From: Escherichia phage ECML-134
Direction: 5' to 3' (one strand)
Sequence record: JX128259
DNA: 64,000 bases
Below are positions 14,545 through 55,285 of the stretch, piece by piece (the stretch's first letter is position 1; each line of letters begins with the position of its first letter). A program made the translations under genes and the position numbers. A model generated the notes under the pieces. It was not told the origin of the DNA, did no database searches, and saw only the letters and a list, made by a program, of their open reading frames with translations.

Positions 14545-14574
14545 ATTATACCATACTCATTTTGGAAAGTAAAC
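14545..14574 (-). promoter_or_regulatory. early sigma70-type promoter
   Basis: gtaaac at 14569-14574; -10 TATAAT from 14545-14550; 15 nt from the stem-loop at 14589-14610. Confidence 0.55.
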
Positions 14575-14588
14575 TGCAAAAACGAAAA

Positions 14589-14610
14589 AAGGAACCCCGA
14601 AGGATTCCTT
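14589..14610 (-). terminator. stem-loop downstream of soc, UUCG tetraloop on transcript
   Basis: aaggaaccc-cgaa-gggattcctt with one mismatch; 6 nt after soc stop. Confidence 0.5.
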
Positions 14611-14615
14611 AAATT

Positions 14616-14873
14616 TTAACCACCAATACCTGGAGTTGGCGTAACAGTCCAAAGACCTTCATTTGCAGTAATCCAATCAGCACGCTGATTTTCTTCATAT
14701 ACTGTTGAATATGCTGCTTTTTCTGAAGGAAATGTCTGATAATGAGCCCCAGAAATTTTGTGAACATCAGAATAAAGAGGGAAAGCTACAGAAATTTCTT
14801 TACCCTGAATTGTACCACCGTCAACTGCTTGGTCAAATGTTTTAATATTAACATAACCGCGAGTACTAGCCAT
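14616..14873 (-). CDS. soc: small outer capsid protein Soc
   Basis: 85-aa ORF MASTRGYVNIKTF...EISVAFPLYSDVHKISGAHYQTFPSEKAAYSTVYEENQR, near-identical to recalled T4 Soc. Confidence 0.9.
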   Translation of the reverse strand: MASTRGYVNIKTFDQAVDGGTIQGKEISVAFPLYSDVHKISGAHYQTFPSEKAAYSTVYEENQRADWITANEGLWTVTPTPGIGG

Positions 14874-14889
14874 GTAATTCTCCTTTTAT

Positions 14890-15099
14890 TTAAATTACAT
14901 GACTATTTATAATAAATTCTCGCGGAACGTTAAAATACCCAATTTTAGTTAATATAACAACATCACCATTAATAATTACCGGAGAATAATCTTCTGGAGC
15001 ATTAAATTTCCAATGGGCTCTAATATTATATCCATCAGAACCAAATGCTCGACTAGCCGGTCTCCCGGCTTTTTGCCATGCATAAAAATCAAATTTCAT
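14890..15099 (-). CDS. small hypothetical protein
   Basis: 69-aa ORF between 56 and soc. Confidence 0.55.
   Translation of the reverse strand: MKFDFYAWQKAGRPASRAFGSDGYNIRAHWKFNAPEDYSPVIINGDVVILTKIGYFNVPREFIINSHVI
14904..14911 (-). promoter_or_regulatory. late promoter core TATAAATA upstream of soc
   Basis: plus-strand tatttata, about 30 nt upstream of soc ATG; AAGGAG Shine-Dalgarno follows. Confidence 0.55.
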
Positions 15100-15290
15100 T
15101 TTGAATGCTCTATAATTAATTTTAAAGCTTCTTCACTGACAAAAATTTCGTCAGGACCTTCTATAATTTCAACCATACGAAGTTGATTAGTTAAGAGCTC
15201 ACACACGAGCTCTTTGTTATAATCTTTAAATAGCTGGTCAATACGTTTCTTATGGGCTTTCTTGAGCTGACGCTTATTTAAACGAGCCAT
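15096..15290 (-). CDS. small hypothetical protein
   Basis: 64-aa ORF; 4 nt overlap with downstream ORF. Confidence 0.55.
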   Translation of the reverse strand: MARLNKRQLKKAHKKRIDQLFKDYNKELVCELLTNQLRMVEIIEGPDEIFVSEEALKLIIEHSK

Positions 15291-15808
15291 TAATAACCTC
15301 GGTCTTGACGAGCGAAGTTTTCAGCATTTTTCAGGTAATAAAGTTTAAAGATTTCTTCAGCTGACATTCCAAGAGCAATAAATTTATTCATGAAAAAGTG
15401 AAATTGGTCAATCAGTTCAAATTTAATTTCAAGCTGATCTTCAGGAGATAAATCTTGAATTTTCTTGGATTGCATTTCAGAATAACGTTTCTTCCAAGGT
15501 TTCCATACAGCAGAAGCTTCTTTTTCACCATTACTCATACCACCAAGAGAAGTATATAGCTCGCGAGTTTCATCTGCGATATAATCGTCTTGGTTTCGCA
15601 ACCAAGCAAGAACTTCTCCTGCAGTTTCAAGTGAATCAGGATGACGATTTGTTTCTGGTTTATCATTAGCCAAACGAATCTGTAAATGCCGCTGCATGTC
15701 AAGCATAACCTGCAGTGGGTCAATATTGTGCATAATATTCTCAGCATATGCACGATTTGCTTTATCAACACCTTCGATCAAATGAGCGCATTCATTAAAG
15801 TAAGCCAT
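15290..15808 (-). CDS. 56: dCTP pyrophosphatase
   Basis: 172-aa ORF, T4 gp56 length; MazG-like; AAGGA Shine-Dalgarno. Confidence 0.85.
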   Translation of the reverse strand: MAYFNECAHLIEGVDKANRAYAENIMHNIDPLQVMLDMQRHLQIRLANDKPETNRHPDSLETAGEVLAWLRNQDDYIADETRELYTSLGGMSNGEKEASAVWKPWKKRYSEMQSKKIQDLSPEDQLEIKFELIDQFHFFMNKFIALGMSAEEIFKLYYLKNAENFARQDRGY

Positions 15809-15881
15809 TATTTTTTTCCTTTCAATTCATGGGTTAGTAGATTAATTATACAATAAATATATAAAGCAATAAGGAGGACAT

Positions 15882-16082
15882 ATGGTACAAAAATTAATGG
15901 CACTTGTTAATGCCATAAAAGGTAATAAAAAACGTATAGCTTTTACTATTTCTGCTATGGTAGGAATTTTACTCTGGAACTTTATTTTATCACCAATTGC
16001 AATTGCGCATGGTGTTAATATTCCAGTAGTTACTCTTGATGCATTCGTAGATCTAGCATTTGCTTTAGTTGGGTTAATTTAA
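15882..16082 (+). CDS. small hydrophobic protein on plus strand
   Basis: 66-aa ORF, two hydrophobic segments; aaggagg 5 nt before ATG; only plus-strand candidate gene in the window; convergent with gene 61. Confidence 0.45.
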   Translation: MVQKLMALVNAIKGNKKRIAFTISAMVGILLWNFILSPIAIAHGVNIPVVTLDAFVDLAFALVGLI

Positions 16083-17107
16083 ATCTTGGCATATTTAGAT
16101 AGCCGCATTTTAGCCATCAACCCCTGGGCAATATTATTTTTCATATATTCCATAATTTGTTCAGGGGTTGCACCTTCCTTTCTAATCATATCATTAACAT
16201 CTTTTGATTTCCAGGGAGATTTATCCCAAAACATAACCCTTTCTCCTGCATCAACTAATTTAGTCATTCGCTTAATAGTGTCAGGATGACGAGGTTCATT
16301 ATCTAAAACCCACACTCGTCTATCTTTAAATGGAACAATTTCTAGGTCTAATTGACCACCCGTAATAGCTATACCATTTTCAATAAAAAGTGAATCTATA
16401 GGTCCTTCTAGAACATATACATCACCATCTTTAACTCGTTCGACTCCATAGATTTTTGTTGCCTCAGGATAAGCTTTGATGGTGATATATTTTTGAGGAG
16501 CATCTTTCTTTAATGCACGTCCTTGAAAAGACTCAGCTTTTCCATTAGCATTATAAATTGGAATAACAAGACGAGGCTCAGGTATTTCCTTTTTATATGT
16601 TCCTGGTGCTATGCTATTAACTAATTTAGGCCATTCAGTTGTAAACCAAAGATATTTCCATTTATCCTTTGGAATACAACGAGCTTTTACGTATTTTATA
16701 ATTGGATGGTCTTCCGTCAGTTTATCTAATCTAACACATGACGGAAGAGATTTAATTATTTTCTTCTCAGGTTGTTTAGGAAGTTCTTTAGGTTTTTCTA
16801 CTGGACGACTTTTACCTTTTTCTTTTCTTATTTCAAAGATATACTCACGATATAAATCAGGTTCAAACTCCTTTAAATATATTCCGATTGGTGCATGATA
16901 GTTACAGTTATAACAATGAATATTTCCTTCATTATTATCACCATAATACCATCCACGGGCTTTATTTTGGTCGGTTTTTGAATCTCCACACACTGGGCAT
17001 CTAAACCGCAATTTAAAAGTTGAACTATTATTTACTTGTGTGAATTTAGGTAAATGAGCTAATGCACGGTATGCAAACTCATTATCAATCCAAGGTATTG
17101 ATGACAT
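16079..17107 (-). CDS. 61: DNA primase
   Basis: 342-aa ORF, T4 gp61 length; zinc-ribbon CPVCGDS...CYNC. Confidence 0.9.
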   Translation of the reverse strand: MSSIPWIDNEFAYRALAHLPKFTQVNNSSTFKLRFRCPVCGDSKTDQNKARGWYYGDNNEGNIHCYNCNYHAPIGIYLKEFEPDLYREYIFEIRKEKGKSRPVEKPKELPKQPEKKIIKSLPSCVRLDKLTEDHPIIKYVKARCIPKDKWKYLWFTTEWPKLVNSIAPGTYKKEIPEPRLVIPIYNANGKAESFQGRALKKDAPQKYITIKAYPEATKIYGVERVKDGDVYVLEGPIDSLFIENGIAITGGQLDLEIVPFKDRRVWVLDNEPRHPDTIKRMTKLVDAGERVMFWDKSPWKSKDVNDMIRKEGATPEQIMEYMKNNIAQGLMAKMRLSKYAKI

Positions 17108-17111
17108 TTTT

Positions 17112-17273
17112 ACTCTTCTTTTTCTTTAGATTCCTCTTTTTTCTTTTTAGGAATCTGTTCAGGACCTTTATTTACTACAGCGCCTGATGTTGTTCCAGTA
17201 GAGATATTTTCAGGATTACCACCTGAATCTCCAGCGACCATATCTTCTTTAATAAATTCTTTATATGTTTTCA
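17112..17273 (-). CDS. small protein with internal-protein-like N-terminus
   Basis: 54-aa ORF translated by hand: MKTYKEFIKEDMVAGDSGGNPENISTGTTSGAVVNKGPEQIPKKKKEESKEKEE; stop 1 nt before gene 61 ATG. Confidence 0.5.
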
Positions 17274-17275
17274 TA

Positions 17276-18195: not shown

Positions 18196-18223
18196 GATAA
18201 TCTCCTCAGTAGTTTATGTTTAT

Positions 18224-18254
18224 ATAGTATCTCAATTTCCAATAAAAGTAAACA
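18224..18254 (-). promoter_or_regulatory. early sigma70-type promoter
   Basis: gtaaac at 18249-18254; -10 TACTAT-like. Confidence 0.5.
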
Positions 18255-18255
18255 G

Positions 18256-18697: not shown

Positions 18698-18726
18698 AAC
18701 AATCTCCTCATTTAACCAACAAGACT

Positions 18727-18756
18727 ACTATACCATAGTCTTGTCAGCTTGTAAAC
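18727..18756 (-). promoter_or_regulatory. early sigma70-type promoter
   Basis: gtaaac at 18751-18756; -10 TATAGT from 18727-18732; 18 bp spacer. Confidence 0.55.
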
Positions 18757-20183: not shown

Positions 20184-20192
20184 ACTTACTCC

Positions 20193-20555
20193 TTAAAAGA
20201 ATTTAAATTTTTTCTTTGACCTTTTATTAAATGCATCTTGTAGTTGCATTGTAATACATTTTTCTACATGAGGAGCTAACTCAGCTTTTCTTTCTTGGTC
20301 AAGAACAGCAAAGTCCATTACGACTTTTCCATCAACCCAATCTAATTTTGTCACATACACAATGTGTGTAGAACCATCTTCTAGTTTAATGACAATCTCC
20401 TGGATAACATTTTCCATGGCAGATTTAATTATCTTAAGAGACTCATTAAAAAGACGTTCTTTTCTTTCTTCTTCCCCCTCCGAAGAGGGGGATTCATCGA
20501 TAATTTCTAGATCTAAATCTAAATCATCTTTATTCATTAAATTCTTCCATATCAC
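20193..20555 (-). CDS. 40: gp40-like head assembly protein
   Basis: 120-aa ORF between uvsX and 41, as in T4. Confidence 0.6.
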   Translation of the reverse strand: MIWKNLMNKDDLDLDLEIIDESPSSEGEEERKERLFNESLKIIKSAMENVIQEIVIKLEDGSTHIVYVTKLDWVDGKVVMDFAVLDQERKAELAPHVEKCITMQLQDAFNKRSKKKFKFF

Positions 20556-23780: not shown

Positions 23781-24173
23781 TCACTTAGTCAAATTTTTTA
23801 CGCATGAATTATAAGAATTCACTACATACTCCATTGGAGCATTTTTACCAGTACGCAACTGGTAATTATTAGCCCAATTTGCCCAAAGCACGGCGCAGTA
23901 ATTTTCAATTTTTTCTTCGCGTGTAATTACATCCGAATTACGATATGCTTGAGCAGATTCATTTGGACGAATAGCTTCGTCAAAATTCGCCTGCATTTGT
24001 TCTACTGTTTGCTTTGGAGCTTCTTTATAACACTTGATATTAGGATTATAAAATTTGCTTGAACAGTTTACAATTTTTCCTGCATCAGACTGATTTACTA
24101 CCGGTCCTTGAGCTACACAACCAGTAAGACCTAATGCAATAACCAAAATAGCGATTTTCATTTGATTCTCCAA
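23781..24173 (-). CDS. putative lipoprotein
   Basis: 130-aa ORF; signal peptide with lipobox LTGC; GGAG Shine-Dalgarno. Confidence 0.6.
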   Translation of the reverse strand: MENQMKIAILVIALGLTGCVAQGPVVNQSDAGKIVNCSSKFYNPNIKCYKEAPKQTVEQMQANFDEAIRPNESAQAYRNSDVITREEKIENYCAVLWANWANNYQLRTGKNAPMEYVVNSYNSCVKNLTK

Positions 24174-24195
24174 ATCCGTATTAGTTGATAGTTGT

Positions 24196-24225
24196 ATAGT
24201 ACCATGGAAGAACAGAGATGTAAAC
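24196..24225 (-). promoter_or_regulatory. early sigma70-type promoter
   Basis: gtaaac at 24220-24225; -10 TACTAT; member of the near-identical promoter family with 49702, 51624, 55213. Confidence 0.55.
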
Positions 24226-24311
24226 AGTTTTGTGAAAAATTTTTAGGGAATTCTAAAGGTCCAGAATCATCTATTTTTCCTAAGAATTGATTTATATTAC
24301 TTGTATGAAAA

Positions 24312-24329
24312 AGGGACCCGGAGGTCCCT
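24312..24329 (-). terminator. stem-loop downstream of gene 43
   Basis: agggacc-cgga-ggtccct; 7 bp stem. Confidence 0.5.
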
Positions 24330-24341: not shown

Positions 24342-27038
24342 TCAGCCAAACAGGAAGTCTAACGAAGCTTTTTCTTCATAGTCCATACCAGCCGATTCAC
24401 ACATACCCGCAAGCGGTTTAACAAACGATTTTTGGAACAAAGTTGAGTAGTCAATCCAAGACAGTACATCAGAACGAATTTCTTTTGGAAGTTCTGTGCC
24501 CGACGGCCAAGCAATACACTTGTCACCAAATGGATTTCCCTCACGTAATGGAAGAACCATTACCTTATTTCCATCCAAAATTGGAGCTACACCCAGACCA
24601 CTAACAGCTCGACGATAAGTTAGCACCCCACGAATGTGGAACGGGCATTTAAATCCTGGCCAACCTTTATCGTCATATTTCGCTATATCGTTCGCGGTTT
24701 TTACTTCAGCAATAACTTTATAGTCAAGTTGACGATATTCTTTCTCAAAGTTCTTATAGTATTCTTGGACAGACTCTTCGCCTTCCTGAAGAATACGACG
24801 AATACTTTCTTCGAGAGCTTCTTGCACTGCTTTTGGTGTTGAACTCTGTTGAGTTTCCATACCCATGATTTTTAAATGCGGTTCAGCAAATCGCTTATCT
24901 TCCATATCATAAACGTTCAGAGCATAACGTTTTTTCGCTTTCCAAAATCCACCAACACCCTTTGAACCGAGCGGAGGGCAAGAAATAGCTTCACGGTCCA
25001 TATGCATCAGATGCTCGCGGTTATTCATATAATCACATAACTCACGATATGCAACATCAATCATAGGTTCCATCTTTTTCTTACCGAACTGATTCATAAA
25101 TTCAACCAAATCGTTCTGCTCTTTGAATCGGTCAAGACCTACTTTTTCAATAACTTTATCTACGCAAACATATACCGAATCAGTATCACCTGCTGCGATG
25201 AAATCTTCACCATTAGTTCCGCATACTTTATTCAGATATTCATTAATTTTACGAGCAATCCACTGAATACCAACTTGGCCGAAAATTGTGATAGCAGTAG
25301 CATTTCGCAAATCATAGTAACGGAAATGAATATTACCAAGAGCACCATAAAGACTGTTAATGAGAATTTTACGGTTCAGCTGATTTGTATTAGCAAGTGT
25401 AGCCGCTTTTTCACATTCCTCAATCAGACTATTGAGAACAGATTCAGTATAATTCGATAGTTCATTTAAGAAATCATCACTGAACTTAACATATCGTTCA
25501 ACTTCAGGTTTAGTTGAACAAGACCCTGCGCCTTTCATAATAATCTTTTTAATAGCTTCGGCATTCATTTCTTCAGCGAACATTTTCTTTTTCCAATCTT
25601 TACGCTGGAAAAATACTTTAGCGATTTCCTTTGGAATGATACCTTCTTGATGCTTATCATACATCCATCCATTCGGAGAACAAGAATATTCATCACTCGG
25701 TTTAGGAGCTGTTCCTGCAATATATTCATGAATTGGATGAACTTTAAACTGCCCACGAATAGTCTCAGGACTAATGTTAACCTGACGAATAATGCTCGGA
25801 TACAGAGACGTCAAGTCAAAACTCATAATATATCGACGAGCAATTGGTTTAGGTTCAAATACAAATGCACCCGGAAAACTTTGTTTAACGTGCGAACCTT
25901 GTTGAGGAATAACCTTATGTTCACCTTTCAATGAGTTAAAAATAATAGCATCCCAAGTTTTAATAGGACTCATTACACCGGAAAAAGGCATTTTAGCGTA
26001 ATAAGACATACTTAAAACTAGATCGATAAACCCGCGAATTTTATCAATTGCTTGAACTGATTCTACGTCAATGATGTTATAACTAATGTATCGTTGATGA
26101 TTAGTCTCACGAAGTTTATTAATAGGGCCATCATATGGTAATTTACCTTTTTTGGTTTCATGTTGAGCAACTGATTCCAAAGAGAATGACGGCAAATTAG
26201 TAAAAGCGAATTTCTTGTACAAATCTAAATAATCAAGAATAGATACGCCATCAATAGAATAAATTTCTTTGCTACCGTACATATTTTGAATTAGTTTAGA
26301 TTTTACTCGACCGATTGGAGAGAAACGTTTCATACTGCGTTCACCTAGAATCATTTTAACACGATTCATGATATACGGAACGTCAAACCCCTCAATATTC
26401 CAACCAGTAAAAATAGCAGGTCGTTTCTGTTCCCAGAGATTGATATATTCCATGAGCATATCACGCTCATTATCGAATGGCATATAAATTACTCGGTCAA
26501 GAATTTCTTGAGGAACTTCATCACCACCTTCACAGTCAAGCTTAGCAGCTAACTTTGCATCCCATTTTGATACTGAACCGTACATTGAATTCAAAAGGTC
26601 GAAAACATAAAAACGATCATCAATTGAATCGTAATGAGTGATAGCATCAATTTCATATTCAGCTTTCATTGGGTCAGGAAATTTATCACCAGTAACCTCA
26701 ATGTCACAGTTAGCTACACGAACAAATTTTCGGTCATAAACAATTTCTGAACCGTATGTATCACTGATATAAGCGAGTTTAAAATCGTTCATACCGAGAG
26801 CTTCGAGACCGATGTCTTCCATTCGCTTCATCCAATCTCGAGCATCTTTCATTGATGGAAATTTTTGAGGAGCGCAGTTTTTACCATAGATGTCTTTGTA
26901 TTTTGACTCTTCCTTACAATGCCTAAACATAGTTGGAAGATATTCTACTTCACGAGTACGTTCCTTTCCATTTTCATCAATATAACGTTCAACAATGTTA
27001 TTTCCGACTGTTTCAATAGAGATATAAAATTCTTTCAT
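24342..27038 (-). CDS. 43: DNA polymerase
   Basis: 898-aa family B polymerase, T4 gp43 length; exonuclease FDIE and polymerase DTDS motifs. Confidence 0.95.
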   Translation of the reverse strand: MKEFYISIETVGNNIVERYIDENGKERTREVEYLPTMFRHCKEESKYKDIYGKNCAPQKFPSMKDARDWMKRMEDIGLEALGMNDFKLAYISDTYGSEIVYDRKFVRVANCDIEVTGDKFPDPMKAEYEIDAITHYDSIDDRFYVFDLLNSMYGSVSKWDAKLAAKLDCEGGDEVPQEILDRVIYMPFDNERDMLMEYINLWEQKRPAIFTGWNIEGFDVPYIMNRVKMILGERSMKRFSPIGRVKSKLIQNMYGSKEIYSIDGVSILDYLDLYKKFAFTNLPSFSLESVAQHETKKGKLPYDGPINKLRETNHQRYISYNIIDVESVQAIDKIRGFIDLVLSMSYYAKMPFSGVMSPIKTWDAIIFNSLKGEHKVIPQQGSHVKQSFPGAFVFEPKPIARRYIMSFDLTSLYPSIIRQVNISPETIRGQFKVHPIHEYIAGTAPKPSDEYSCSPNGWMYDKHQEGIIPKEIAKVFFQRKDWKKKMFAEEMNAEAIKKIIMKGAGSCSTKPEVERYVKFSDDFLNELSNYTESVLNSLIEECEKAATLANTNQLNRKILINSLYGALGNIHFRYYDLRNATAITIFGQVGIQWIARKINEYLNKVCGTNGEDFIAAGDTDSVYVCVDKVIEKVGLDRFKEQNDLVEFMNQFGKKKMEPMIDVAYRELCDYMNNREHLMHMDREAISCPPLGSKGVGGFWKAKKRYALNVYDMEDKRFAEPHLKIMGMETQQSSTPKAVQEALEESIRRILQEGEESVQEYYKNFEKEYRQLDYKVIAEVKTANDIAKYDDKGWPGFKCPFHIRGVLTYRRAVSGLGVAPILDGNKVMVLPLREGNPFGDKCIAWPSGTELPKEIRSDVLSWIDYSTLFQKSFVKPLAGMCESAGMDYEEKASLDFLFG

Positions 27039-27096
27039 AGATATTCCTTAGTTTATAGCCCGAGTTATTAGGCTCTTGATATATTATACTCCAAAT

Positions 27097-27114
27097 AAGG
27101 GGCCGAAGCCCCTT
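27097..27114 (-). promoter_or_regulatory. stem-loop in gene 43 leader, UUCG tetraloop on transcript
   Basis: aaggggc-cgaa-gcccctt, about 60 nt upstream of gene 43 ATG. Confidence 0.5.
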
Positions 27115-27118: not shown

Positions 27119-27376
27119 TTAAATTTCTATTGTACGACGCGATATAACGGACTTGCCATCTTTATTTGTGGTTTTGATAATCGCATGAAATGCGAGCTGG
27201 TGCGGGTAAACTAATCGTTGGAATTCTTTTTGGAATTCTATTTGTTTATCTTCCGGGAGGTCAAAAACCAGTTGGGTAGAAGACAGACCATATGTTTGTT
27301 TTAGATTTTCGAATATTAGAAAAGCTTCGGTAAACTGAATCTCTGATTGTGTCATATAATTTGCCTTAATTACCAA
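27119..27376 (-). CDS. hypothetical ORF between regA and 43
   Basis: 85-aa ORF overlapping regA 3' end by 11 nt; no motif recognised. Confidence 0.4.
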   Translation of the reverse strand: MVIKANYMTQSEIQFTEAFLIFENLKQTYGLSSTQLVFDLPEDKQIEFQKEFQRLVYPHQLAFHAIIKTTNKDGKSVISRRTIEI

Positions 27377-29275: not shown

Positions 29276-29294
29276 GTTTTAGTGTAAATTATAA

Positions 29295-29308
29295 AGGGCC
29301 GAAGCCCT
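29295..29308 (-). terminator. stem-loop between 45 and 44, UUCG tetraloop on transcript
   Basis: agggc-cgaa-gccct. Confidence 0.45.
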
Positions 29309-29311
29309 CTA

Positions 29312-29998
29312 TTAAAAATCGTGGGTAGAATCAGCTTCAAGAGCTACTACATAATTTGCGTGTTCACCTTCAAATTTAGCAGCACCTTGTTTACCTTTTG
29401 CCCAGAGCAGAAGTTTATAATTTCCTGGTTGCATTTTCATATTTGCCATATTGATAATGAAATTAAATGTATTTTCACCATCATAATCACCAAGAGTCAA
29501 AGAATATTTAACACGAGTCAAAGCAGAATCTTCTACTTTATTAAAACCGTTAATTACGATTTTACCTTCTTTTACCGTGATAGCAATTGTATCAATCTGC
29601 AGACCACGAGATACACGCAACAGTTGTTGAAGGTCTTCAGCTTTAATTTCAGTAACAACAGATGCTACCGGGAATGGAATTGGTTTATTAGGAGCAACTA
29701 CTGTACTCGGATCGGCTGCTGGCCAAAAAATTGTTGAGCGGGCATCAGCAATTTTAATATTTCCATCTTCTGACTGGGAAATTTCTGCATCATCATTAAC
29801 TAAAGACAGAATACCGAGAAAACCGTTCAAATCGTAAATTGCTACATCAAAATCAATAACGTCAGAAATATTTGCTTCCGCATAAGTTGTACCATTAACT
29901 GCGCGAGTCATAATAAATTGACCAGATTTAAGCATAATACCGGAGTTAATAGTAGCGAAATTTTTAAGCAGAGCAGTAGTATCTTTAGACAGTTTCAT
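29312..29998 (-). CDS. 45: sliding clamp
   Basis: 228-aa ORF, T4 gp45 length. Confidence 0.85.
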   Translation of the reverse strand: MKLSKDTTALLKNFATINSGIMLKSGQFIMTRAVNGTTYAEANISDVIDFDVAIYDLNGFLGILSLVNDDAEISQSEDGNIKIADARSTIFWPAADPSTVVAPNKPIPFPVASVVTEIKAEDLQQLLRVSRGLQIDTIAITVKEGKIVINGFNKVEDSALTRVKYSLTLGDYDGENTFNFIINMANMKMQPGNYKLLLWAKGKQGAAKFEGEHANYVVALEADSTHDF

Positions 29999-32394: not shown

Positions 32395-33249
32395 TCACAA
32401 TGAAGAAAATTCTTTAACTAAAGCCTGTAATGAAGCCTCTATTGGATATCCATTCTTAACTAACATTTTCCTAAACATCACATGTTTAGGACGATTATAT
32501 GATATCCACAATTCATACAATTTATCTTTATTATCCCAATGATAGCCTTTTCGTCTAGATGCTATATGAGCTTTTCTAATCTCCGGATTTTTCCAACTAG
32601 CAGCTACTGAATTTGATATAGCTATTTTATATTCAGGTTTTGATAAAGCAGCACGAACAGCCTTTTGGTGTTTAATTTTATTTTCTTCGTTATTAAACCA
32701 TTCCCTTGAAGCCATTGAAATTTTTTGTTTTGTTTTAAAATTATTTAATCTTTCTTTGTTATCTTTCCTATTTTTTGCTACTGAAAAATATTTTAATGCC
32801 CTTTCTCTAGCAGCATTTCTATTTTGCGGATTTGAATAATACTGTTGAAGCCTTTTTGATATTGTGTCACTTACATCTCGTTTTATAAAACTATATTCAG
32901 CAGCTATTAAATCAACTTCGGCTAAAGATAAATTTTTATATGTTTTTCCTGACATCATTCTATTTAAAGCATTTAGCATTTTTCCATTTTTACCTTTTGC
33001 TAATAAGAAGTGTGCTTTAAAATGATTAAAATGACTTAAATTAACTAAATTCCATGTAGATTTTAAATATTCAGGAAATATTGATTTAGGAAGCACGTGG
33101 TGTGCTTCCGTTTTACCTGGAGTTTTAACAGTTGAATTCATAGAAATAAAATTAATGTAAGACTTGGCGTCTTCTTCACTCAACGCTAATTTTTCAACTA
33201 ATTCCTTTATTAAAAATTCATCATTAATGTCAAGTTTAAAATTCTTCAC
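32395..33249 (-). CDS. free-standing HNH homing endonuclease
   Basis: 284-aa ORF; HNH motif EAHHVLPKS...NLVNLSH...H; begins with GTG; first ~12 codons copy the start of the preceding ORF. Confidence 0.7.
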   Translation of the reverse strand: MKNFKLDINDEFLIKELVEKLALSEEDAKSYINFISMNSTVKTPGKTEAHHVLPKSIFPEYLKSTWNLVNLSHFNHFKAHFLLAKGKNGKMLNALNRMMSGKTYKNLSLAEVDLIAAEYSFIKRDVSDTISKRLQQYYSNPQNRNAARERALKYFSVAKNRKDNKERLNNFKTKQKISMASREWFNNEENKIKHQKAVRAALSKPEYKIAISNSVAASWKNPEIRKAHIASRRKGYHWDNKDKLYELWISYNRPKHVMFRKMLVKNGYPIEASLQALVKEFSSL

Positions 33250-34712: not shown

Positions 34713-34849
34713 ATATCAAGAACCGTCATTGAAATGCAAAATAAAATTATTGAAATAAATCCATCTGGAGTGCTAAAGAACCCAATCCAACATGCTCTAG
34801 TGAATAGATAAAATGCAAGAAAAAGTATCACATATCCAAGAAATATCAT
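34712..34849 (-). CDS. small hydrophobic peptide
   Basis: 46-aa ORF translated by hand (MIFLGYVILFLAFYLFTRACWIGFF...); stop overlaps gene 47 ATG (ATATGA); GGAG Shine-Dalgarno. Confidence 0.45.
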
Positions 34850-34872
34850 TATATCAAACTCCGTATAAAGCT

Positions 34873-34890
34873 AAAGGGCCGAAGCCCTTT
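34873..34890 (-). terminator. stem-loop at alpha-gt 3' end, UUCG tetraloop on transcript
   Basis: aaagggc-cgaa-gcccttt; overlaps alpha-gt stop codon. Confidence 0.5.
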
Positions 34891-36091: not shown

Positions 36092-36142
36092 TTAATATCC
36101 TCATTGTTTTGGTTTATTTTACCAAAAATTTATAAAGCAATA

Positions 36143-36160
36143 TAGGAGCCGAAGCTCCTA
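36143..36160 (-). terminator. stem-loop, UUCG tetraloop on transcript
   Basis: taggagc-cgaa-gctccta; 7 bp stem. Confidence 0.5.
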
Positions 36161-36331
36161 TCCGCATAATACGCCATACAAAGGCTCGTTAGAGCTTCTA
36201 AATTTTATACACTTATATGTTATAGTTCCTTCTGCTTTAGCTTTATCATGAGACTCTTTAAAGCGTCTCATCATTTCCTCTTTAGAGGAACGAATTTTAT
36301 TATAATCTATTTCAGAAGTCTGGGTGTTCAT
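36161..36331 (-). CDS. small hypothetical protein
   Basis: 57-aa ORF translated by hand (MNTQTSEIDYNKIRSSKEEMMRRFKESHDK...); ends at the stem-loop. Confidence 0.4.
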
Positions 36332-37663: not shown

Positions 37664-37933
37664 TTATCTAAGTAAGCAGTATGCTTGGAATACTTTCTCC
37701 ATCATCTTTTTAAATTCATGAATATCTATATAATGACTAGTTAGATCAGCATGATATAAAAAGTCTAAAAACTTTTCATGTGTGCTAACATATTCGCTTT
37801 CATTTAATTCAGAAACATGACTTTCCCAATATCCAACACCAGTCTTATTTGGGAAAAATGAAATTTTCATGCATTGATCAACATAGAAAATGCCATAATT
37901 TTCAATAGTAATAGAAATATTAATAAATTTCAT
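37664..37933 (-). CDS. small hypothetical protein
   Basis: 89-aa ORF. Confidence 0.55.
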   Translation of the reverse strand: MKFINISITIENYGIFYVDQCMKISFFPNKTGVGYWESHVSELNESEYVSTHEKFLDFLYHADLTSHYIDIHEFKKMMEKVFQAYCLLR

Positions 37934-38512: not shown

Positions 38513-38528
38513 AAGGGCCGAAGCCCTT
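38513..38528 (-). terminator. stem-loop with U-tract, UUCG tetraloop on transcript
   Basis: aagggc-cgaa-gccctt followed on the transcript by UUUU. Confidence 0.55.
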
Positions 38529-39365: not shown

Positions 39366-39395
39366 ATAATACCACAGTTTGAGCTCGCTGTAAAC
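39366..39395 (-). promoter_or_regulatory. early sigma70-type promoter
   Basis: gtaaac at 39390-39395; -10 TATTAT; 18 bp spacer. Confidence 0.5.
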
Positions 39396-39476
39396 AACTT
39401 TGTGAAAATTATTTTAGGGAATGATAAGAAGGGAACGATAGCTTAGAATGGTAATATACAGAATGTAAGAAAGAAA

Positions 39477-49744: not shown

Positions 49745-49746
49745 AA

Positions 49747-51137: not shown

Positions 51138-51155
51138 ATTTGTTTTGATAGGGTA

Positions 51156-51185
51156 ATAGTATCACACTACTACCCTTCTGTAAAC
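51156..51185 (-). promoter_or_regulatory. early sigma70-type promoter
   Basis: gtaaac at 51180-51185; -10 TACTAT. Confidence 0.5.
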
Positions 51186-51188
51186 AAT

Positions 51189-51452
51189 TTATTTTAACGT
51201 TCGCCAAATTTTTACTGCTTCACGGCGAGATACTTCTACAGCTCCAAGTTCTACAGCTTTTTGGCGTCGGCGAGCGTGTAAGTCATAATGTTTAATGCGT
51301 TTATCTTGAAACCAAGAACGTTTCATTCCTATTGCTTCTGCCATTTCATGAAGCTCTTCAATATCTCCATCAGTGAACATATGACAATTTTTAGTTGGAT
51401 GACCGCGAAGTTTCCATCCATGATTCATTAAAACATCTACGTAAACTGTCAT
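51189..51452 (-). CDS. small hypothetical protein
   Basis: 87-aa ORF. Confidence 0.55.
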   Translation of the reverse strand: MTVYVDVLMNHGWKLRGHPTKNCHMFTDGDIEELHEMAEAIGMKRSWFQDKRIKHYDLHARRRQKAVELGAVEVSRREAVKIWRTLK

Positions 51453-51598
51453 TGATTCTTCTCCAAATAAGTTTCGATAATTTTCTGAGCGAGATAAACT
51501 GCATTATCTTCAGTTGCATCTTCTAAGAAACTTTCAAAACACTCTGAAATTTCTTCTGTGTCAATCAACTTTTTTACTTCAATTGGTGTAATTTTCAT
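51449..51598 (-). CDS. small acidic protein
   Basis: ORF track gives 51449-51667; start moved to internal Met because promoter 51636-51665 lies inside the longer ORF. Confidence 0.45.
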   Translation of the reverse strand: MKITPIEVKKLIDTEEISECFESFLEDATEDNAVYLAQKIIETYLEKNQ

Positions 51599-51635
51599 TT
51601 TGTTTTTCCGTTTAAGTGTTTGTTTTGATAGTTGT

Positions 51636-51665
51636 ATAGTACCATAAAGCTTTATGCTTGTAAAC
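51636..51665 (-). promoter_or_regulatory. early sigma70-type promoter
   Basis: gtaaac at 51660-51665; -10 TACTAT; 30 nt from stem-loop 51696-51713. Confidence 0.55.
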
Positions 51666-51695
51666 AATTTTGTGAAAAATTTTTGAAATAAAAAA

Positions 51696-51713
51696 GGGAG
51701 CCCGAAGGCTCCC
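51696..51713 (-). terminator. stem-loop, UUCG tetraloop on transcript
   Basis: gggagcc-cgaa-ggctccc; 7 bp stem; 3 nt after stop of the nucleotidyltransferase-fold ORF. Confidence 0.55.
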
Positions 51714-51715
51714 TA

Positions 51716-52729
51716 TCATTTATAATAACTTCGGTGGTTTTCAAGATAAACCCTCTCAAGGAAGTCATCCCAGAAACCCATGTCTACTTTTTGCTGCATA
51801 CCGTTCTTAGAAGCTTCAGTAGATGCTGCTTCTACTTGATCGACCACATCTTCCAAAAACTCTTGAACTGTTTTAAATGGATGTTTACCCAACTTCACGT
51901 CGAGAATAAATGGAGCATCTTGAAGTGGATAAACCAAGTCACCAGTTTTGTAAATTTCCAATAGTTGGAGTCCACCACGGCAAGCATGACTCAAAGCTTT
52001 CCAGTCAATACCTTCATTGGCTTCGGCCTTACGAGCGCGTTCACCATATTCAGCATCTAATTTGTTCAGTGACTGCTTAAGCTCAATAAGAGAAAGAGTT
52101 GTCTGATATTTACGACCCAACACAGTGTAGAACGTTTGTGGGCCTGTTTTCTCATGATTATGGAACACCCATTCACAGAATTCGTTTTCTGGAAGACGAT
52201 GCTTAATATCTTCAACTTTAGTACGACGCTGCTTAATGGAACCGTCTTCTTGGTAATCAACCCATTGCTCAGGGATTTGATTAACTACTTTCAATACATC
52301 ACGTAATGCAGCCAAACGAGAACCCTTGACGCCGTATTTAGAAGCTTGCTTGCGGACATATCCTAAATATGATTTCATGTTAGTCGTATAAAAACGAGAA
52401 CGGTTGTCTTGAATAAACTTCCACACATCAGGCAAATCAGATTTAACCACCAGTTCAGGTGGAGTGTGAAGCATATCCAATGCTACAGTTTCACCATCTG
52501 CTGCTAATTTAAAGAAATACTTAAGACTATACAATTCGTGGTCAATATCATCTTTAGTGTTTTTAGATGATGTGTTGTTGGTGTTTTTACTCATGTGCTC
52601 TTTGACATTTCCGATAAGAATATCGCGAGCAGGAGGAACAAAAATTTCTTTAAAATCTACATCAGATTCTGGAGTAGAAGTTCCATAAAGATGACTACCA
52701 AAATAGCTTTTCATTACTGTTTTCATCAT
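51716..52729 (-). CDS. nucleotidyltransferase-fold protein (pol-beta-like signature)
   Basis: 337-aa ORF; N-terminal FGSHLYGTSTPESDVDF fits the G-S-x(10)-D-x-D nucleotidyltransferase pattern. Confidence 0.6.
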   Translation of the reverse strand: MMKTVMKSYFGSHLYGTSTPESDVDFKEIFVPPARDILIGNVKEHMSKNTNNTSSKNTKDDIDHELYSLKYFFKLAADGETVALDMLHTPPELVVKSDLPDVWKFIQDNRSRFYTTNMKSYLGYVRKQASKYGVKGSRLAALRDVLKVVNQIPEQWVDYQEDGSIKQRRTKVEDIKHRLPENEFCEWVFHNHEKTGPQTFYTVLGRKYQTTLSLIELKQSLNKLDAEYGERARKAEANEGIDWKALSHACRGGLQLLEIYKTGDLVYPLQDAPFILDVKLGKHPFKTVQEFLEDVVDQVEAASTEASKNGMQQKVDMGFWDDFLERVYLENHRSYYK

Positions 52730-53187
52730 TCAGCCTTATATTCAATAACAGGACATACTTTAGCTTTACGGGCTTTTAAAAATTCGACGATAATAGATTT
52801 CTTGGGTTGAATAGGAGGTAAACCTTTATACGCCCTATCAATATTTTCTACATGTAAAGCATAATCCTTTTTCCATTTATAATCTTTATATTTTTCATGC
52901 AGTTGTGCAGGAATAACAAATGAACCAATAATAAGTAAAACAAGCAAAATGGCAAATATAAATGCTGATGGAATAAGAGTCCATAAACTACCAAAAATAA
53001 TCCATTTCTGTATGATTTCTGCGCAGATGATAGTTAGACCTGTGAGTATAGTACATCCGAAAAAAGAAACGAAAAATGTAGGGATAACAATAGACCAAAA
53101 GTATGCACACAGTGTCTTAGGTCGTTTCCATTCATCATTAAACAGTTTGAATAATTTATAGTGCCAAGAGTTTTCATTAATAATCAT
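52726..53187 (-). CDS. multi-pass membrane protein
   Basis: 153-aa ORF; three to four hydrophobic segments; 4 nt overlap with the nucleotidyltransferase-fold ORF start. Confidence 0.6.
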   Translation of the reverse strand: MIINENSWHYKLFKLFNDEWKRPKTLCAYFWSIVIPTFFVSFFGCTILTGLTIICAEIIQKWIIFGSLWTLIPSAFIFAILLVLLIIGSFVIPAQLHEKYKDYKWKKDYALHVENIDRAYKGLPPIQPKKSIIVEFLKARKAKVCPVIEYKAE

Positions 53188-53189
53188 AA

Positions 53190-53711
53190 TTATCCTTTCA
53201 TTGAAGGTGTAACAGTTGTTAAATACTTAATCATAGCTTCAGCTTCTGATTTTGATAATGAAATTTCTCCATTGTTTTGACGAATAGAAATAAAATCCGG
53301 ATGACGGTCACCACCAGCTTTTAAAACACACATATAAGTATCAGTTTCATCTTCAATATCTGAAATGATTGAAGCAGTTCCACATGAATGTGGTTTTTGA
53401 TAAATCAATACAGCTTTTCTTCCACCGTTTGACTGTTCATAAACTTTTAACACATCAAACAAATCGCTTCTTTTATCAATAGCTAAGATGTTGTTTTCAT
53501 CTTCAATATTAAATCCTTCGGATACTTCATAAAGTGTCACCCATAAATCACCTATATCGATAGTAGCATTTCCTTTTCCACGACTTTCAAGAATATGACA
53601 AATTTTCTTGATTTCGTCATAACTCATTTTAATAATATCATCTCCTTGAATAAGGAAGATGTCATTTTTAAATTCAACATGAATTAAACCACTTCCACTT
53701 GAAATAAACAT
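53190..53711 (-). CDS. hypothetical protein, paralog pair member
   Basis: 173-aa ORF; C-terminus SKSEAEAMIKYLTTVTPSM similar to next ORF. Confidence 0.6.
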   Translation of the reverse strand: MFISSGSGLIHVEFKNDIFLIQGDDIIKMSYDEIKKICHILESRGKGNATIDIGDLWVTLYEVSEGFNIEDENNILAIDKRSDLFDVLKVYEQSNGGRKAVLIYQKPHSCGTASIISDIEDETDTYMCVLKAGGDRHPDFISIRQNNGEISLSKSEAEAMIKYLTTVTPSMKG

Positions 53712-53717
53712 ATTTCC

Positions 53718-54275
53718 TCACTTTGAAATCATAGTTGGAATGACAGAATCAAGATAAGTCTTTAGCGCAATAGCTTCGTCTTTGGTAAATGTGACAATAT
53801 GCGATCGAAAATCATCAATTTGACGAATAGTTAAGACATCACCATCTTCATAGCATTTTGATACGTTTAAAACAGTTTCATCATTTTGATTGCAAGCGTT
53901 AGTAATAATAGCATTGCAATTTTTGAGCCATTTTAAACTATGTTTTCTTTCATTAGAATAATAAAAATATTTAATCTTATCTATAAAACTATCCCAATGG
54001 ATAACTGATAAACACATTGACTCACTTTTAATATTAAATCCTGGGCATGAAGAATAAAAATGAATTTTGTGCTCATCATTGATGCTTACTATTTTATCAG
54101 TATAAGGATATTCAATTTGGGTTAAATGAATGATTTCGCTAGGAGTAAAATATAGCATATCGTCTTCTTGTGTCAAACGATACATATTATTTACTTTTTC
54201 TATAGCTAATTCACCAAAAAGCGGACTAACTTCTAATACTAATCGTTTCATATTGATTCTCTTCGACTCACTCAC
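53718..54275 (-). CDS. hypothetical protein, paralog pair member
   Basis: 185-aa ORF; C-terminus TKDEAIALKTYLDSVIPTM. Confidence 0.6.
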   Translation of the reverse strand: MSESKRINMKRLVLEVSPLFGELAIEKVNNMYRLTQEDDMLYFTPSEIIHLTQIEYPYTDKIVSINDEHKIHFYSSCPGFNIKSESMCLSVIHWDSFIDKIKYFYYSNERKHSLKWLKNCNAIITNACNQNDETVLNVSKCYEDGDVLTIRQIDDFRSHIVTFTKDEAIALKTYLDSVIPTMISK

Positions 54276-54410
54276 AATTACATACTCCTTTGAATAATAT
54301 CAATAATGTTGTTCACCAGATTATAAGTAAACATTGGATAATTATATTGAATCATCACATACACAACAAACAAAACTTTCATTCTCTTCTCCTTGGCAGT
54401 TGACAAGATT

Positions 54411-54440
54411 ACTATATCATAACCTTGCCAACTTGTAAAC
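54411..54440 (-). promoter_or_regulatory. early sigma70-type promoter
   Basis: gtaaac at 54435-54440; -10 TATAGT. Confidence 0.5.
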
Positions 54441-54445
54441 CATTA

Positions 54446-54616
54446 AATGACGTTTTCAATAAAATTCTGAAGCTTTGGGTGAGCATCAACCATGATTTTC
54501 ATTTCTTCCTTTGCGAAAGCTGTACCTCTTTCCCTAGCAGAATACTCATAGTCAGAAACTGCATTAGCATATTCTTCAATTAGCTTCATTAAAAACATCT
54601 GCTTTTCAGTTTTCAT
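54446..54616 (-). CDS. small hypothetical protein
   Basis: 57-aa ORF translated by hand (MKTEKQMFLMKLIEEYANAVSDYEYSARERG...); start overlaps upstream stop. Confidence 0.4.
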
Positions 54617-54800
54617 TATTCCACCTAATCATTTCAAGATATTGAACTAACTTAGCTTTGGATTTATCCAAATCCTTTTTAGCTGCTTCTATACCATCGT
54701 ATGAGTATCCTTCACAATGCTCAACTGCTAATTGGTATGAATCTATTTCAATATCACGTGCTAATTTAATGATTTTTTCAAACTGTTCACTTGTCAGCAT
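54606..54800 (-). CDS. small hypothetical protein
   Basis: 64-aa ORF. Confidence 0.5.
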   Translation of the reverse strand: MLTSEQFEKIIKLARDIEIDSYQLAVEHCEGYSYDGIEAAKKDLDKSKAKLVQYLEMIRWNNEN

Positions 54801-54802
54801 AC

Positions 54803-55042
54803 TTAAACTCTCGTATTATGATCGATAATTTCATCAAGAAACATATCTAAAGCTTCTACAGCATTATCAACTTTAGCTTCAAGTTCTTCAGCGCCTTTAT
54901 TTGCAATGCCTGCCGAAAACCAAGCAAAGTCACTAAGTTCCTCATCTGCTTTGCGAATTAAAGCTACCAATTCTTTAATTTTATCTGCTTGTTCAATGCT
55001 AGTCATTATTCCACCACATATGAAAGAGAGAATATTGCACAC
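54803..55042 (-). CDS. small acidic protein
   Basis: 79-aa ORF. Confidence 0.5.
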
Positions 55043-55194
55043 GCCATATGAGTTGCAGCTTCATCACACATATCATAACTTTCCTTAAGAAGTTCTACAA
55101 GTTCTTCACTAGTAACTTCATCCATGTCGACGAAAAAATCACCATTAATGATGACGTAGATATTTCCTTCTTGATTAAGTGCTTCAATTTTCAT
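55006..55194 (-). CDS. small acidic protein
   Basis: ORF track gives 55006-55239; start moved to Met 16 after AGGAG; promoter lies inside the longer ORF. Confidence 0.45.
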
Positions 55195-55222
55195 GATGTT
55201 CTCCTCTTTATCCGATAGTTGT

Positions 55223-55252
55223 ATAGTATCACAGCTCAAATGGAAAGTAAAC
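55223..55252 (-). promoter_or_regulatory. early sigma70-type promoter
   Basis: gtaaac at 55247-55252; -10 TACTAT; 15 nt from stem-loop 55268-55285. Confidence 0.55.
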
Positions 55253-55267
55253 CGGTAAAATGAAAAA

Positions 55268-55285
55268 AGTCTCCCGAAGGAGACT
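55268..55285 (-). terminator. stem-loop, UUCG tetraloop on transcript
   Basis: agtctcc-cgaa-ggagact; 7 bp stem. Confidence 0.55.

Follow-up and report, generated by a model that had tools for sequence, protein, structure and literature searches.

Intergenic UUCG hairpins of terminator type, mostly followed by early or middle promoters, in a 64-kb stretch of a T4-like coliphage genome

Eleven intergenic stem-loops in the genome of Escherichia phage ECML-134 (JX128259) are very probably factor-independent terminator or attenuator hairpins that act at the RNA level and end prereplicative (early and middle) transcription units. The stretch analysed, hereafter the window, covers the first 64 kb (64,000 nucleotides) of this T4-like coliphage (Tequatrovirus); it is colinear without gaps with phage SCS4, and its minus strand carries nearly all of its genes. 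The common feature of the eleven sites is a terminator-type hairpin at the RNA level, not a mobile cassette.

All eleven stem-loops listed in an earlier note on this DNA were found in place, and RNA folding of 35-42 nt around each gave the hairpin as the minimum-free-energy structure (-10.7 to -17.7 kcal/mol), confirming the observation itself (Table 1). The set comprises nine UUCG hairpins and two loop variants (UCCG at 24312, UCU at 39476). The note had described 5-7 bp GC stems with UUCG in the minus-strand transcript; the loop was as described, and the stems proved slightly longer, at 6-9 bp with a G+C core of 4-7 bp. Its list also missed a hairpin within gene 40 (20492-20473), the tenth C(UUCG)G tetraloop hairpin of the window in the mRNA sense. 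A search for 4-nt loops on stems of 5 bp or more, with 3 or more G-C pairs, gave 58 minus-sense hairpins, including the ten with a UUCG loop, every one closed by a C-G pair; no plus-sense (antisense) UUCG hairpin was found in the window under the same criteria. The non-coding share of the window is about 7.5%, yet nine of the ten UUCG hairpins lie there. Each of the eleven intergenic hairpins starts 0-12 nt from the upstream stop codon, and in ten of them at least five of the 8 nt past the G+C core are U (background probability 0.10). In T4 beyond the window, plus-sense hairpins follow the plus-strand genes 18 and 23 and a minus-sense hairpin follows the minus-strand gene hoc; hairpin sense thus tracks the direction of transcription elsewhere in T4.

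Table 1 Hairpins, promoters and associated features in the window
Feature	Position	Strand	Sequence or remark
C(UUCG)G hairpin at 39.1 homolog stop codon	4328..4345	-	AAAGGCC UUCG GGCCUUU; T4 ortholog 5398-5381
MotA-box middle promoter, T4 P39 equivalent	4301..4330	-	uAGCTTTA, 12 nt, TATAAT
C(UUCG)G hairpin + U6, 3 nt past soc stop codon	14589..14610	-	AAGGAAUCC UUCG GGGUUCCUU, one G-U pair; T4 ortholog 15324-15303
Early promoter past soc hairpin	14545..14574	-	GTTTACT-N17-TATAAT; repeat family D3
UUCG hairpin within gene 40 coding sequence	20473..20492	-	no U tract (0 U); not a unit boundary
C(UCCG)G hairpin + U5, 12 nt past gene 43 stop codon	24312..24329	-	AGGGACC UCCG GGUCCCU
Early promoter upstream of imm.1, 87 nt past 24312 hairpin	24196..24225	-	repeat families D1, D2; A/T-rich element upstream
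C(UUCG)G hairpin, regA / gene 43	27097..27114	-	AAGGGGC UUCG GCCCCUU; T4 ortholog 29969-29952
C(UUCG)G hairpin, gene 45/44 spacer	29291..29312	-	AUAGAGGGC UUCG GCCCUUUAU; no promoter
C(UUCG)G hairpin overlapping a-gt stop codon	34872..34891	-	UAAAGGGC UUCG GCCCUUUA; T4 ortholog 36626-36607
MotA-box middle promoter, T4 P47 equivalent	34848..34875	-	motif
C(UUCG)G hairpin overlapping a-gt.2 stop codon	36142..36161	-	AUAGGAGC UUCG GCUCCUAU; T4 ortholog 38734-38715
MotA-box middle promoter, T4 PmobB/Pa-gt.1 equivalent	36116..36142	-	TTGCTTTA, 11 nt, TAAAAT
C(UUCG)G hairpin + U5, 55.3/55.2 spacer	38513..38528	-	AAGGGC UUCG GCCCUU
G+C hairpin, UCU loop, U-rich tail, 3 nt past nrdH stop codon	39476..39490	-	GGGCCC UCU GGGCCU
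Early promoter upstream of 55.6 homolog, ~80 nt past 39476 hairpin	39366..39395	-	motif
C(UUCG)G hairpin + U6, 1 nt past nrdC.11 stop codon	51695..51714	-	AGGGAGCC UUCG GGCUCCCU; T4 ortholog 55433-55414
Early promoter (PeSL-type cassette) past 51695 hairpin	51636..51665	-	repeat families D1, D2
Two small ORFs absent from T4, T6, RB3	51189..51598	-	cassette between two early promoters
Second early promoter before nrdC.10 ('half PeSL')	51156..51185	-	no terminator hairpin; repeat family D4
C(UUCG)G hairpin + U6, 4 nt past rI.-1 stop codon	55268..55285	-	AGUCUCC UUCG GGAGACU; T4 ortholog 58814-58797
Early promoter (PeSL-type cassette) past 55268 hairpin, upstream of mobD.5 homolog	55223..55252	-	motif

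T4 orthologs exist for every hairpin in the window, that of the soc hairpin differing by a compensatory change (C-G to A-U). In more distant T4-like phages the tetraloop persists and the stems are altered by compensatory substitutions. The hairpin between genes 45 and 44 is retained in position across T4-like genera with covarying stems: among 11 distinct T4-like phages (gp45 identity 53-100%) it is 96% paired, with double changes in 6 of 7 pairs, and the nrdC.11 hairpin is 98% paired among phages with 76-100% protein identity, with double changes in 5 of 8 pairs and an invariant C(UUCG)G, both pairing percentages being inflated by alignments anchored on hairpins picked by eye or script. The loops of the 45/44 hairpin among the 11 phages are UUCG, UACG, GAAA or UUUG.

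A promoter follows nine of the eleven intergenic hairpins, early at five and MotA-dependent middle at four. The early promoter lies directly after three hairpins and 85-95 nt further on at two more. For those three, the earlier note had given a spacing of 15-30 nt, borne out by distances of 14, 29 and 15 nt between the 3' end of the hairpin and the -35 hexamer (GTTTAC) at soc, nrdC.11 and rI.-1, respectively. Its recurring module of early promoter plus stem-loop holds at these 3 of 11 sites; four others have middle promoters, and a motif search together with mapped T4 sites gave no promoter at two (the 45/44 and 55.3/55.2 spacers, the latter with no recognisable promoter motif around the 38513 hairpin). 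Conversely, of the roughly 18 early promoters in intergenic spacers, only 3 are directly preceded by such a hairpin.

The four middle promoters are the equivalents of T4 P39, P43, P47 and PmobB/Pa-gt.1, whose start sites at 5349, 29933, 36576 and 38682 (PMC2988021, Table 1; T4-to-window liftover offset of 1053 at P39) are located 19-33 nt beyond the hairpins in T4. The four hairpins each have a MotA box and -10 element immediately after them, at mapped T4 start-site equivalents, resembling the PmSL (promoter-middle stem-loop), a term that PMC4122927 applies only to Vibrio phage nt-1. The MotA box in the window overlaps the U-rich terminator tail (P39, P47 and PmobB equivalents, at the 4328, 34872 and 36142 hairpins) or, for P43, is expected in the upper part (5' arm/loop) of the 27097 hairpin; no statement of such an overlap was found in the literature cited here.

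The arrangement suggests a pathway in which RNA polymerase would continue past the upstream gene's stop codon, and the G+C stem with its extra-stable C(UUCG)G cap would fold as polymerase reaches the U-rich tail, so that part or all of transcription would stop at the hairpin. A promoter 0-95 nt beyond it, sigma-70 early at five sites and MotA/AsiA-dependent middle at four, would then restart the next unit. We infer the occurrence of termination and its efficiency at each site; the hairpins are probably partial terminators (attenuators). An independent scanner reported six intergenic hairpins as terminator-like on the minus strand. Those at 4328, 27097, 29291, 34872 and 36142 may be poor terminators, since their U tails are interrupted and in the minus sense the scanner gave them a weak flag or none. 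UUCG hairpins have been described in T4 mRNA and also as rho-independent terminators (Tuerk, Gauss, Gold et al., PNAS 1988, cited in PMC3972237); the window hairpins share the loop, C-G closing pair, intercistronic location and lineage of that set, and differ in a few stem substitutions, as at soc, and in nothing of substance. They likewise resemble E. coli and phage rho-independent terminators in their G+C-rich stem and short, stable loop, in a U-rich tail on the 3' side, in a 5' flank that is often A-rich and in lying just past the stop codon in the direction of transcription, and differ from them in U tracts interrupted in about half and in a promoter that follows almost immediately. Stem-loops of this kind in RB49 have been tested as terminators (PMC2839356).

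It is possible, although on balance doubtful, that the hairpins serve mainly in RNA stability, processing or translation and do not release polymerase; they would then stop 3'-to-5' exonucleases once an endonuclease has cut the RNA, or fix how strongly neighbouring cistrons are expressed relative to each other, for example clamp (45) against clamp loader (44/62). The 45/44 hairpin persists at 53-58% gp45 identity, its distant orthologs often lacking the U tract and its loops being assigned only to extra-stable classes (UNCG, GNRA), and T4 delayed-early RNA is thought to require nuclease protection (PMC2988021). The gene 40 hairpin is perfectly conserved without a U tract, and the UUCG motif therefore also has some non-terminator RNA role. 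The interrupted tails of several hairpins point in the same direction. However, the uninterrupted U5-U7 tracts at five sites are typical of strong intrinsic terminators, and a restart promoter at 9 of 11 hairpins is easiest to understand if transcription from upstream drops at these points. The two roles are compatible, and the same terminator hairpins probably also protect mRNA 3' ends.

The earlier note had also linked the modules to PeSL elements, described in T4-type phages as boundaries of plastic regions. This background is accurate: the PeSL (promoter-early stem-loop), so named by Krisch and colleagues, was defined in RB49/phi1 (Arbiol et al. 2010, PMC2839356), and in T4/PST it consists of a stem-loop directly upstream of TTTACW-N17-TAYWAT (Comeau et al. 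2014, PMC4122927). Three window cassettes (14545-14610, upstream of the mrh.2 homolog, 51636-51714 and 55223-55285) match the PST/T4 layout, continuing with a Shine-Dalgarno sequence and ATG; they lie amid small ORFs of unknown function, and one brackets a variable cassette. They differ from the RB49 PeSL, in which a GGGG/CCCC-rich stem-loop lies between or over the promoter hexamers (PMC2839356), and the type covers only 3 of 11 window hairpins (5 of 11 with the distance relaxed).

We consider it unlikely that the modules are primarily DNA-level recombination cassettes marking such boundaries, in which exchange between homologous copies would add, remove or replace the ORFs that they flank; this model was published for RB49 on the evidence of mini-circles (PMC2839356) and later applied to T4/PST (PMC4122927). 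The nrdC.11/nrdC.10 junction fits it, holding no inserted ORFs in T4, T6 and RB3, two in the window and SCS4, and three in ACG-C40, where the extra ModB-like ORF is flanked by two copies of hairpin, U-run and 'ATTTCAAAAATTTTTCACAAAATTGTTTAC'; two IMG/VR contigs (L005 and L006) carry further alleles. In addition, T6 lacks 3.4 kb (59465-62831), with the junction within the -35 element of two early promoters, and no dispersed repeat families in the window are larger than those formed by early promoters. Nevertheless, nrdC.11/nrdC.10 is the only clear hotspot. In a small sample of comparators (four full genomes and four partial), hairpin junctions as a class were not richer in indels than other intergenic spacers of at least 30 nt (5/11 versus 11/28 in the four full genomes, Fisher p = 0.73); no enrichment of breakpoints at the hairpins was found. 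Two of the three early-promoter cassettes showed no adjacent gene gain or loss: the sole event at 14589 is divergence within soc in one genome, and at 55268 no indel occurred among the eight comparators. Other events comprise an ORF inserted in ACG-C40 directly downstream of the imm.1 early promoter, mobB inserted in T4 directly downstream of the PmobB equivalent, and one extra ORF in this phage at the regA side of the 27097 hairpin, with a breakpoint relative to T4, T6 and RB3 located 5 nt upstream of the hairpin. Crossovers that could be located, including those at nrdC.11/nrdC.10, lie in promoter repeats or leader sequence, not in hairpins. The hairpins give no homology for exchange, since their stems differ from site to site, and a DNA-level role would not need their strictly mRNA-sense loop orientation. 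Any part that the modules have in gene shuffling appears to lie with their promoter halves, which are dispersed and resemble one another, rather than with the hairpins. The earlier interpretation is partly supported.

That the stem-loops are chance G+C-rich palindromes within an A+T-rich genome has practically no probability: short palindromes are frequent in general (26.8 qualifying tetraloop hairpins with any loop per shuffled sequence), but 200 dinucleotide-preserving shuffles of the window gave a mean of 0.10 and a maximum of 2 UUCG hairpins against the ten observed, which refutes a chance origin; their single orientation, intergenic position next to stop codons, conservation and covariation also speak against it.

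Hairpins of the UUCG terminator type, usually followed by a restart promoter, have long been known in T4-like phages, and the present finding is correct but ordinary. Restart after termination at these hairpins would leave adjacent transcription units insulated from each other and separately timed.

All 11 intergenic stem-loops that the earlier note had listed, with short G+C stems and a UUCG loop on the minus-strand transcript, were found in the window as described. With a minimum stem of 5 bp (G-U allowed), three or more G-C pairs and a 4-nt loop as the definition, 58 hairpins were counted on the minus strand, of which 10 carry a UUCG loop, closed in 10/10 cases by a C-G pair in the mRNA sense. 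In 200 dinucleotide-preserving shuffles the mean number of UUCG hairpins was 0.10 and the maximum 2, and a chance origin was rejected; no plus-sense UUCG hairpin occurs in the window. Nine of the ten are intergenic, while the tenth, overlooked in the note, lies inside gene 40. The stems comprise 6–9 bp with 4–7 G-C core pairs. Of the two sites noted as variants, 24312 is C(UCCG)G, a member of the UNCG class, and 39476 has a UCU loop and falls outside the C(UUCG)G class. RNA folding returned the hairpin as the minimum-free-energy structure of its local context at all sites, with energies of -10.7 to -17.7 kcal/mol. A search of the whole window against Rfam at the gathering threshold matched no family; elements of this size fall below that of curated families.

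In the mRNA sense, each of the 11 intergenic hairpins starts 0–12 nt from the upstream stop codon or overlaps it. At 10 of the 11 sites, at least five of the 8 nt that follow the G+C core are U (background P = 0.10 in intergenic windows). Uninterrupted U5–U7 runs occur at 14589, 24312, 39476, 51695 and 55268, and the tails are interrupted at 4328, 27097, 29291, 34872 and 36142. A generic scanner independently flagged six of the intergenic hairpins as terminator-like on the minus strand. The sites present the hallmarks of intrinsic (rho-independent) terminators, namely a stable G+C hairpin, a U-rich 3' tract and a position after a CDS in the direction of transcription. The gene 40 hairpin (UCCCCCUC UUCG GAGGGGGA, minus strand, -16.7 kcal/mol), located ~40 nt past the uvsX stop codon, lacks a U tract and is unlike a terminator in appearance; it is identical in T4, T6, RB3, ACG-C40 and SCS4.

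The window has a G+C content of 35%, and no tRNA genes were found in its 64 kb. A 6-kb sample shared 99.3% identity with Escherichia phage vB_EcoM_SCS4 and 90–97% with hundreds of Tequatrovirus (T4-like) genomes. SCS4 positions 1–64000 are colinear with the window, gapless and with 868 mismatches, and 121/121 minus-strand CDS of SCS4 are intact in the window, ~92.5% of which is coding. In SCS4, the closest GenBank record, nearly all genes are labelled hypothetical, and motB (162 aa, 5598–6086) and the small gene 47.1 (within 34713–34888), both intact in the window, are unannotated. The deposited SCS4 sequence also carries N bases exactly inside two UUCG hairpins (equivalents of 34872–34891 and 36142–36161), which may reflect base-calling trouble at very stable structures.

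In T4, the window corresponds to the prereplicative gene region from rIIA through nudE, with minus-strand transcription, and every hairpin of the window has a positional ortholog there. The UUCG loop is oriented in the mRNA sense in 10/10 window cases. In the 75–125 kb region of T4, where genes lie on both strands, hairpin orientation tracks the gene strand: genes 18 and 23, on the plus strand, are followed by plus-sense hairpins, that of gene 23 being AGGGAACC UUCG GGUUCCCU with U5 after it, and hoc, on the minus strand, is followed by a minus-sense one. A role of the hairpins as DNA-level cruciforms or recombination sites was set aside, since the loop orientation is always that of the mRNA and stems are not shared between sites. 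The hairpin after T4 gene 18 (100532–100549) leads directly into TATAAATA, the late-promoter motif of gene 19, a terminator-then-promoter design as in the window, but with a late promoter.

Across relatives, the hairpins persist while their stems change. After nrdC.11, in phages of 76–100% protein identity, the stem is AGGGAGCC, AAAAGGCC, AAGGAACC, AAGGACCC or AAGGGCC, and C(UUCG)G is present throughout the set, along with a U tract and an early-type promoter. Pairing was 98% in this set, with changes on both sides in 5/8 pairs, and 96% among 11 distinct orthologs of the hairpin between genes 45 and 44 (gp45 identity 53–100%), with double changes in 6/7 pairs, the percentages being inflated by alignments anchored on the hairpins themselves. 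The loops of the 45/44 orthologs are UUCG, UACG, GAAA or UUUG. Despite the anchoring, it is still informative that a stable tetraloop hairpin keeps recurring at one junction on stems that are unrelated. Among members of the genus the hairpins hardly vary; the hairpin after soc shows one compensatory change, C-G to A-U. IMG/VR returned few Tequatrovirus contigs (4–6 per query) and was used for cross-genus covariation rather than within-genus synteny.

Promoters adjoining the hairpins are of two main kinds, early and MotA-dependent middle promoters. Middle promoters were identified by a MotA box, (a/t)(a/t)(a/t)TGCTTtA, with the -10 element TAnnnT following after 12 ± 1 bp. The mapped T4 middle-promoter start sites P39 (5349), P43 (29933), P47 (36576) and PmobB/Pa-gt.1 (38682) (Hinton's table, PMC2988021) lie 19–33 nt beyond the matching T4 hairpins and fit the motifs in the window, placing four hairpins directly before MotA-dependent promoters that were identified by experiment. 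The U-rich tail and the MotA box (xGCTTTA) overlap at three of these four. No recognisable promoter was found after 29291 or 38513. The three early promoters directly after hairpins are each followed by GAGG/GGAG and ATG. The distances from these hairpins to the GTTTAC -35 hexamer were measured as 14, 29 and 15 nt, in line with the 15–30 nt proposed in the note. Such adjacency involves only 3 of the ~18 intergenic early promoters and only 3 of the 11 hairpins.

Hairpins of the window, their T4 counterparts and the promoters that follow them (all on the minus strand)
Hairpin in window	T4 hairpin	Location	Promoter after hairpin	Promoter coordinates	Sequence or T4 correspondence
4328	5398-5381	39.1/39	MotA-box middle, abutting	4330-4301	lifts over to T4 P39 start site
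14589	15324-15303	soc/mrh.2	early, directly after	14574-14545	GTTTACT-N17-TATAAT
20492-20473	22348-22329	within gene 40
24329-24312			early, ~80-87 nt past	24225-24196
27097	29969-29952	regA/43	-10 element and gp43 operator hairpin		P43 start site maps there; weak MotA box match (GGCTTCG)
29291	31914-31899	45/44
34872	36626-36607	a-gt/47.1	MotA-box middle, abutting	34875-34848	lifts over to T4 P47 start site
36142	38734-38715	a-gt.2/mobB	MotA-box middle, abutting	36142-36116	lifts over to T4 PmobB start site
38513	40838-40823	55.3/55.2
39490-39476			early, ~80-87 nt past	39395-39366
51695	55433-55414	nrdC.11/nrdC.10	early, directly after	51665-51636	GTTTACA-N17-TACTAT
55268	58814-58797	rI.-1/mobD.5	early, directly after	55252-55223	GTTTACT-N17-TACTAT

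Searches of the accessible literature gave no usable genome-wide 3'-end or TSS map of T4 and no 3'-end data for T4-like phages. The hairpin structures, their statistical excess, their placement and U-rich tails, their conservation and the nearby promoters are shown directly; from these we infer that they are probably intrinsic terminator or attenuator hairpins, which would end early and middle transcription units, and that the restart promoter after most of them would leave the units insulated and separately timed. Termination followed by restart agrees with the two-route expression of T4 middle genes, by extension of early transcripts and by MotA-dependent initiation (PMC2988021). Because the distant 45/44 orthologs and the gene 40 hairpin lack a U tract, part of the class may have a stability, processing or translational role. 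A further reading, which we regard as improbable, holds that not every UUCG hairpin is a terminator: the U-tract-free subset, comprising the 45/44 hairpin, conserved across genera with loops only of the UNCG or GNRA class, and the invariant gene 40 hairpin, would form an RNA element of its own, such as a protein or nuclease recognition site or a ribosome-pausing signal setting cistron stoichiometry, and the overlap of tail or hairpin with the MotA box at four sites would be dual-use sequence, the same bases ending early transcripts as RNA and recruiting MotA as DNA. If true, such dual use would couple read-through shut-off to middle-promoter activation.

Promoter-early stem-loop (PeSL) cassettes were defined in RB49/phi1 as an early promoter with a stem-loop, and their promoter and terminator activity and mini-circles were shown by inverse PCR and lacZ fusions (PMC2839356). 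The concept was later extended to PST/T4, with the stem-loop a short way before TTTACW-N17-TAYWAT (PMC4122927). The note had linked three hairpin-promoter cassettes of the window (14545–14610, 51636–51714 and 55223–55285) to PeSL elements, and it did so correctly, since all three match the published T4/PST layout, an intergenic composite with an A/T-rich region and a stem-loop shortly before the early promoter, then Shine-Dalgarno and start codon. Elsewhere on the minus strand, inverted repeats with 8–15 bp stems span the -10 of early promoters, with the -10 hexamer in the loop, at 12414–12448, 18714–18749, 54398–54433 and 51150–51176, where the stems are longest, and at 6124–6147 and 62805–62828. 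These resemble the layout of RB49-type PeSLs ('stem-loop over the -10'), and the whole hairpin would be present in read-through transcripts only. A further minus-strand hairpin, at 63344–63373, has late-promoter sequence (TAAATACT/TATAAATA) in its loop and its 3' arm over the Shine-Dalgarno of gene e, an arrangement already known to prevent early transcripts from being translated into lysozyme (PMC3014915).

The proposal that these modules mark the boundaries of plastic regions found support at one hotspot, and no enrichment was seen for the class as a whole among the genomes compared. The window was chained against the four full genomes of T4, T6, RB3 and ACG-C40 and against four Tequatrovirus contigs from IMG/VR. 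An indel or replacement edge was present at 5/11 hairpin junctions, 11/28 other spacers of at least 30 nt and 17/81 short junctions, counts that are slightly off through the absence of motB and 47.1 from the SCS4-derived CDS list, with the result unchanged. Hairpin junctions were not enriched over other long spacers (Fisher p = 0.73, four full genomes), and long spacers differed from short ones (p = 0.03); indels therefore favour long spacers generally, not hairpin spacers. Single ORFs of the window at 8422–8682, 27119–27355, 32395–33249 and 37664–37933 are missing from T4 and, in a variable pattern, from T6, RB3 and ACG-C40; that at 27119–27355 sits 5 nt from the hairpin, as an insertion between regA and the hairpin/P43 region.

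The one clear hotspot is nrdC.11/nrdC.10, with no ORF in T4, T6 and RB3 and two in the window, bounded by the hairpin-promoter at 51714–51636 and a second early promoter at 51185–51156. ACG-C40 has a third, ModB-like ORF here, between two repeats of hairpin, U run, upstream element and -35; its colinear chain across 51698–54277 is a chaining artefact, and the region was judged by eye. Two IMG/VR contigs carry further alleles. At the other two cassettes, 55268 showed no change in eight comparators, and the sole event at 14589 was divergence within soc in one genome.

T6 lacks 3.4 kb (59465–62831); the breakpoint sits in the -35 hexamer of two early promoters, neither of which has a terminator-type G+C/UUCG hairpin. 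The promoters flanking the gap lie at 59435–59466 and 62815–62844, and the T6 junction at ~60995–61008, in their shared GTTTACTTT -35 region. The difference is a promoter-to-promoter deletion or insertion in which hairpins of the terminator type (G+C/UUCG) take no part. Early-promoter halves form the largest dispersed repeat families of the window (26–48 nt, 62–97% identity), and the stems differ between sites. Stretches of ~100 nt around the early promoters at 5487–5595 and 24155–24244 match other T4 intergenic regions (27001–27099, 55314–55403 and 70621–70718) at 78–85%, a dispersed early-promoter repeat family exceeding the core promoter length. On our reading, the promoter halves would supply the homology for exchange, and the hairpins are RNA-level elements that stand beside some of them by happenstance.

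The hairpins are real and were correctly recognised in the note, but they are already known. Intercistronic C(UUCG)G hairpins of T4 have been textbook knowledge since 1988. Their occurrence in T4 mRNA and as terminators is credited to Tuerk et al. 1988, as cited in PMC3972237, and terminator-promoter composites (PeSLs) were published for the T4/PST pair in 2014 (PMC4122927). The present analysis accordingly carries little weight as a discovery; its small additions are four hairpins forming 'promoter-middle' composites in a Tequatrovirus, the lack of breakpoint enrichment at hairpins in the genomes compared, and some conserved hairpins without a U tract. For annotation, it provides a map of 11 likely transcription-unit ends and nine restart promoters in a poorly annotated isolate. 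For the PeSL model it advises caution, as the recombination substrate here appears to be the dispersed early-promoter repeats, with the hairpins behaving as RNA-level elements.
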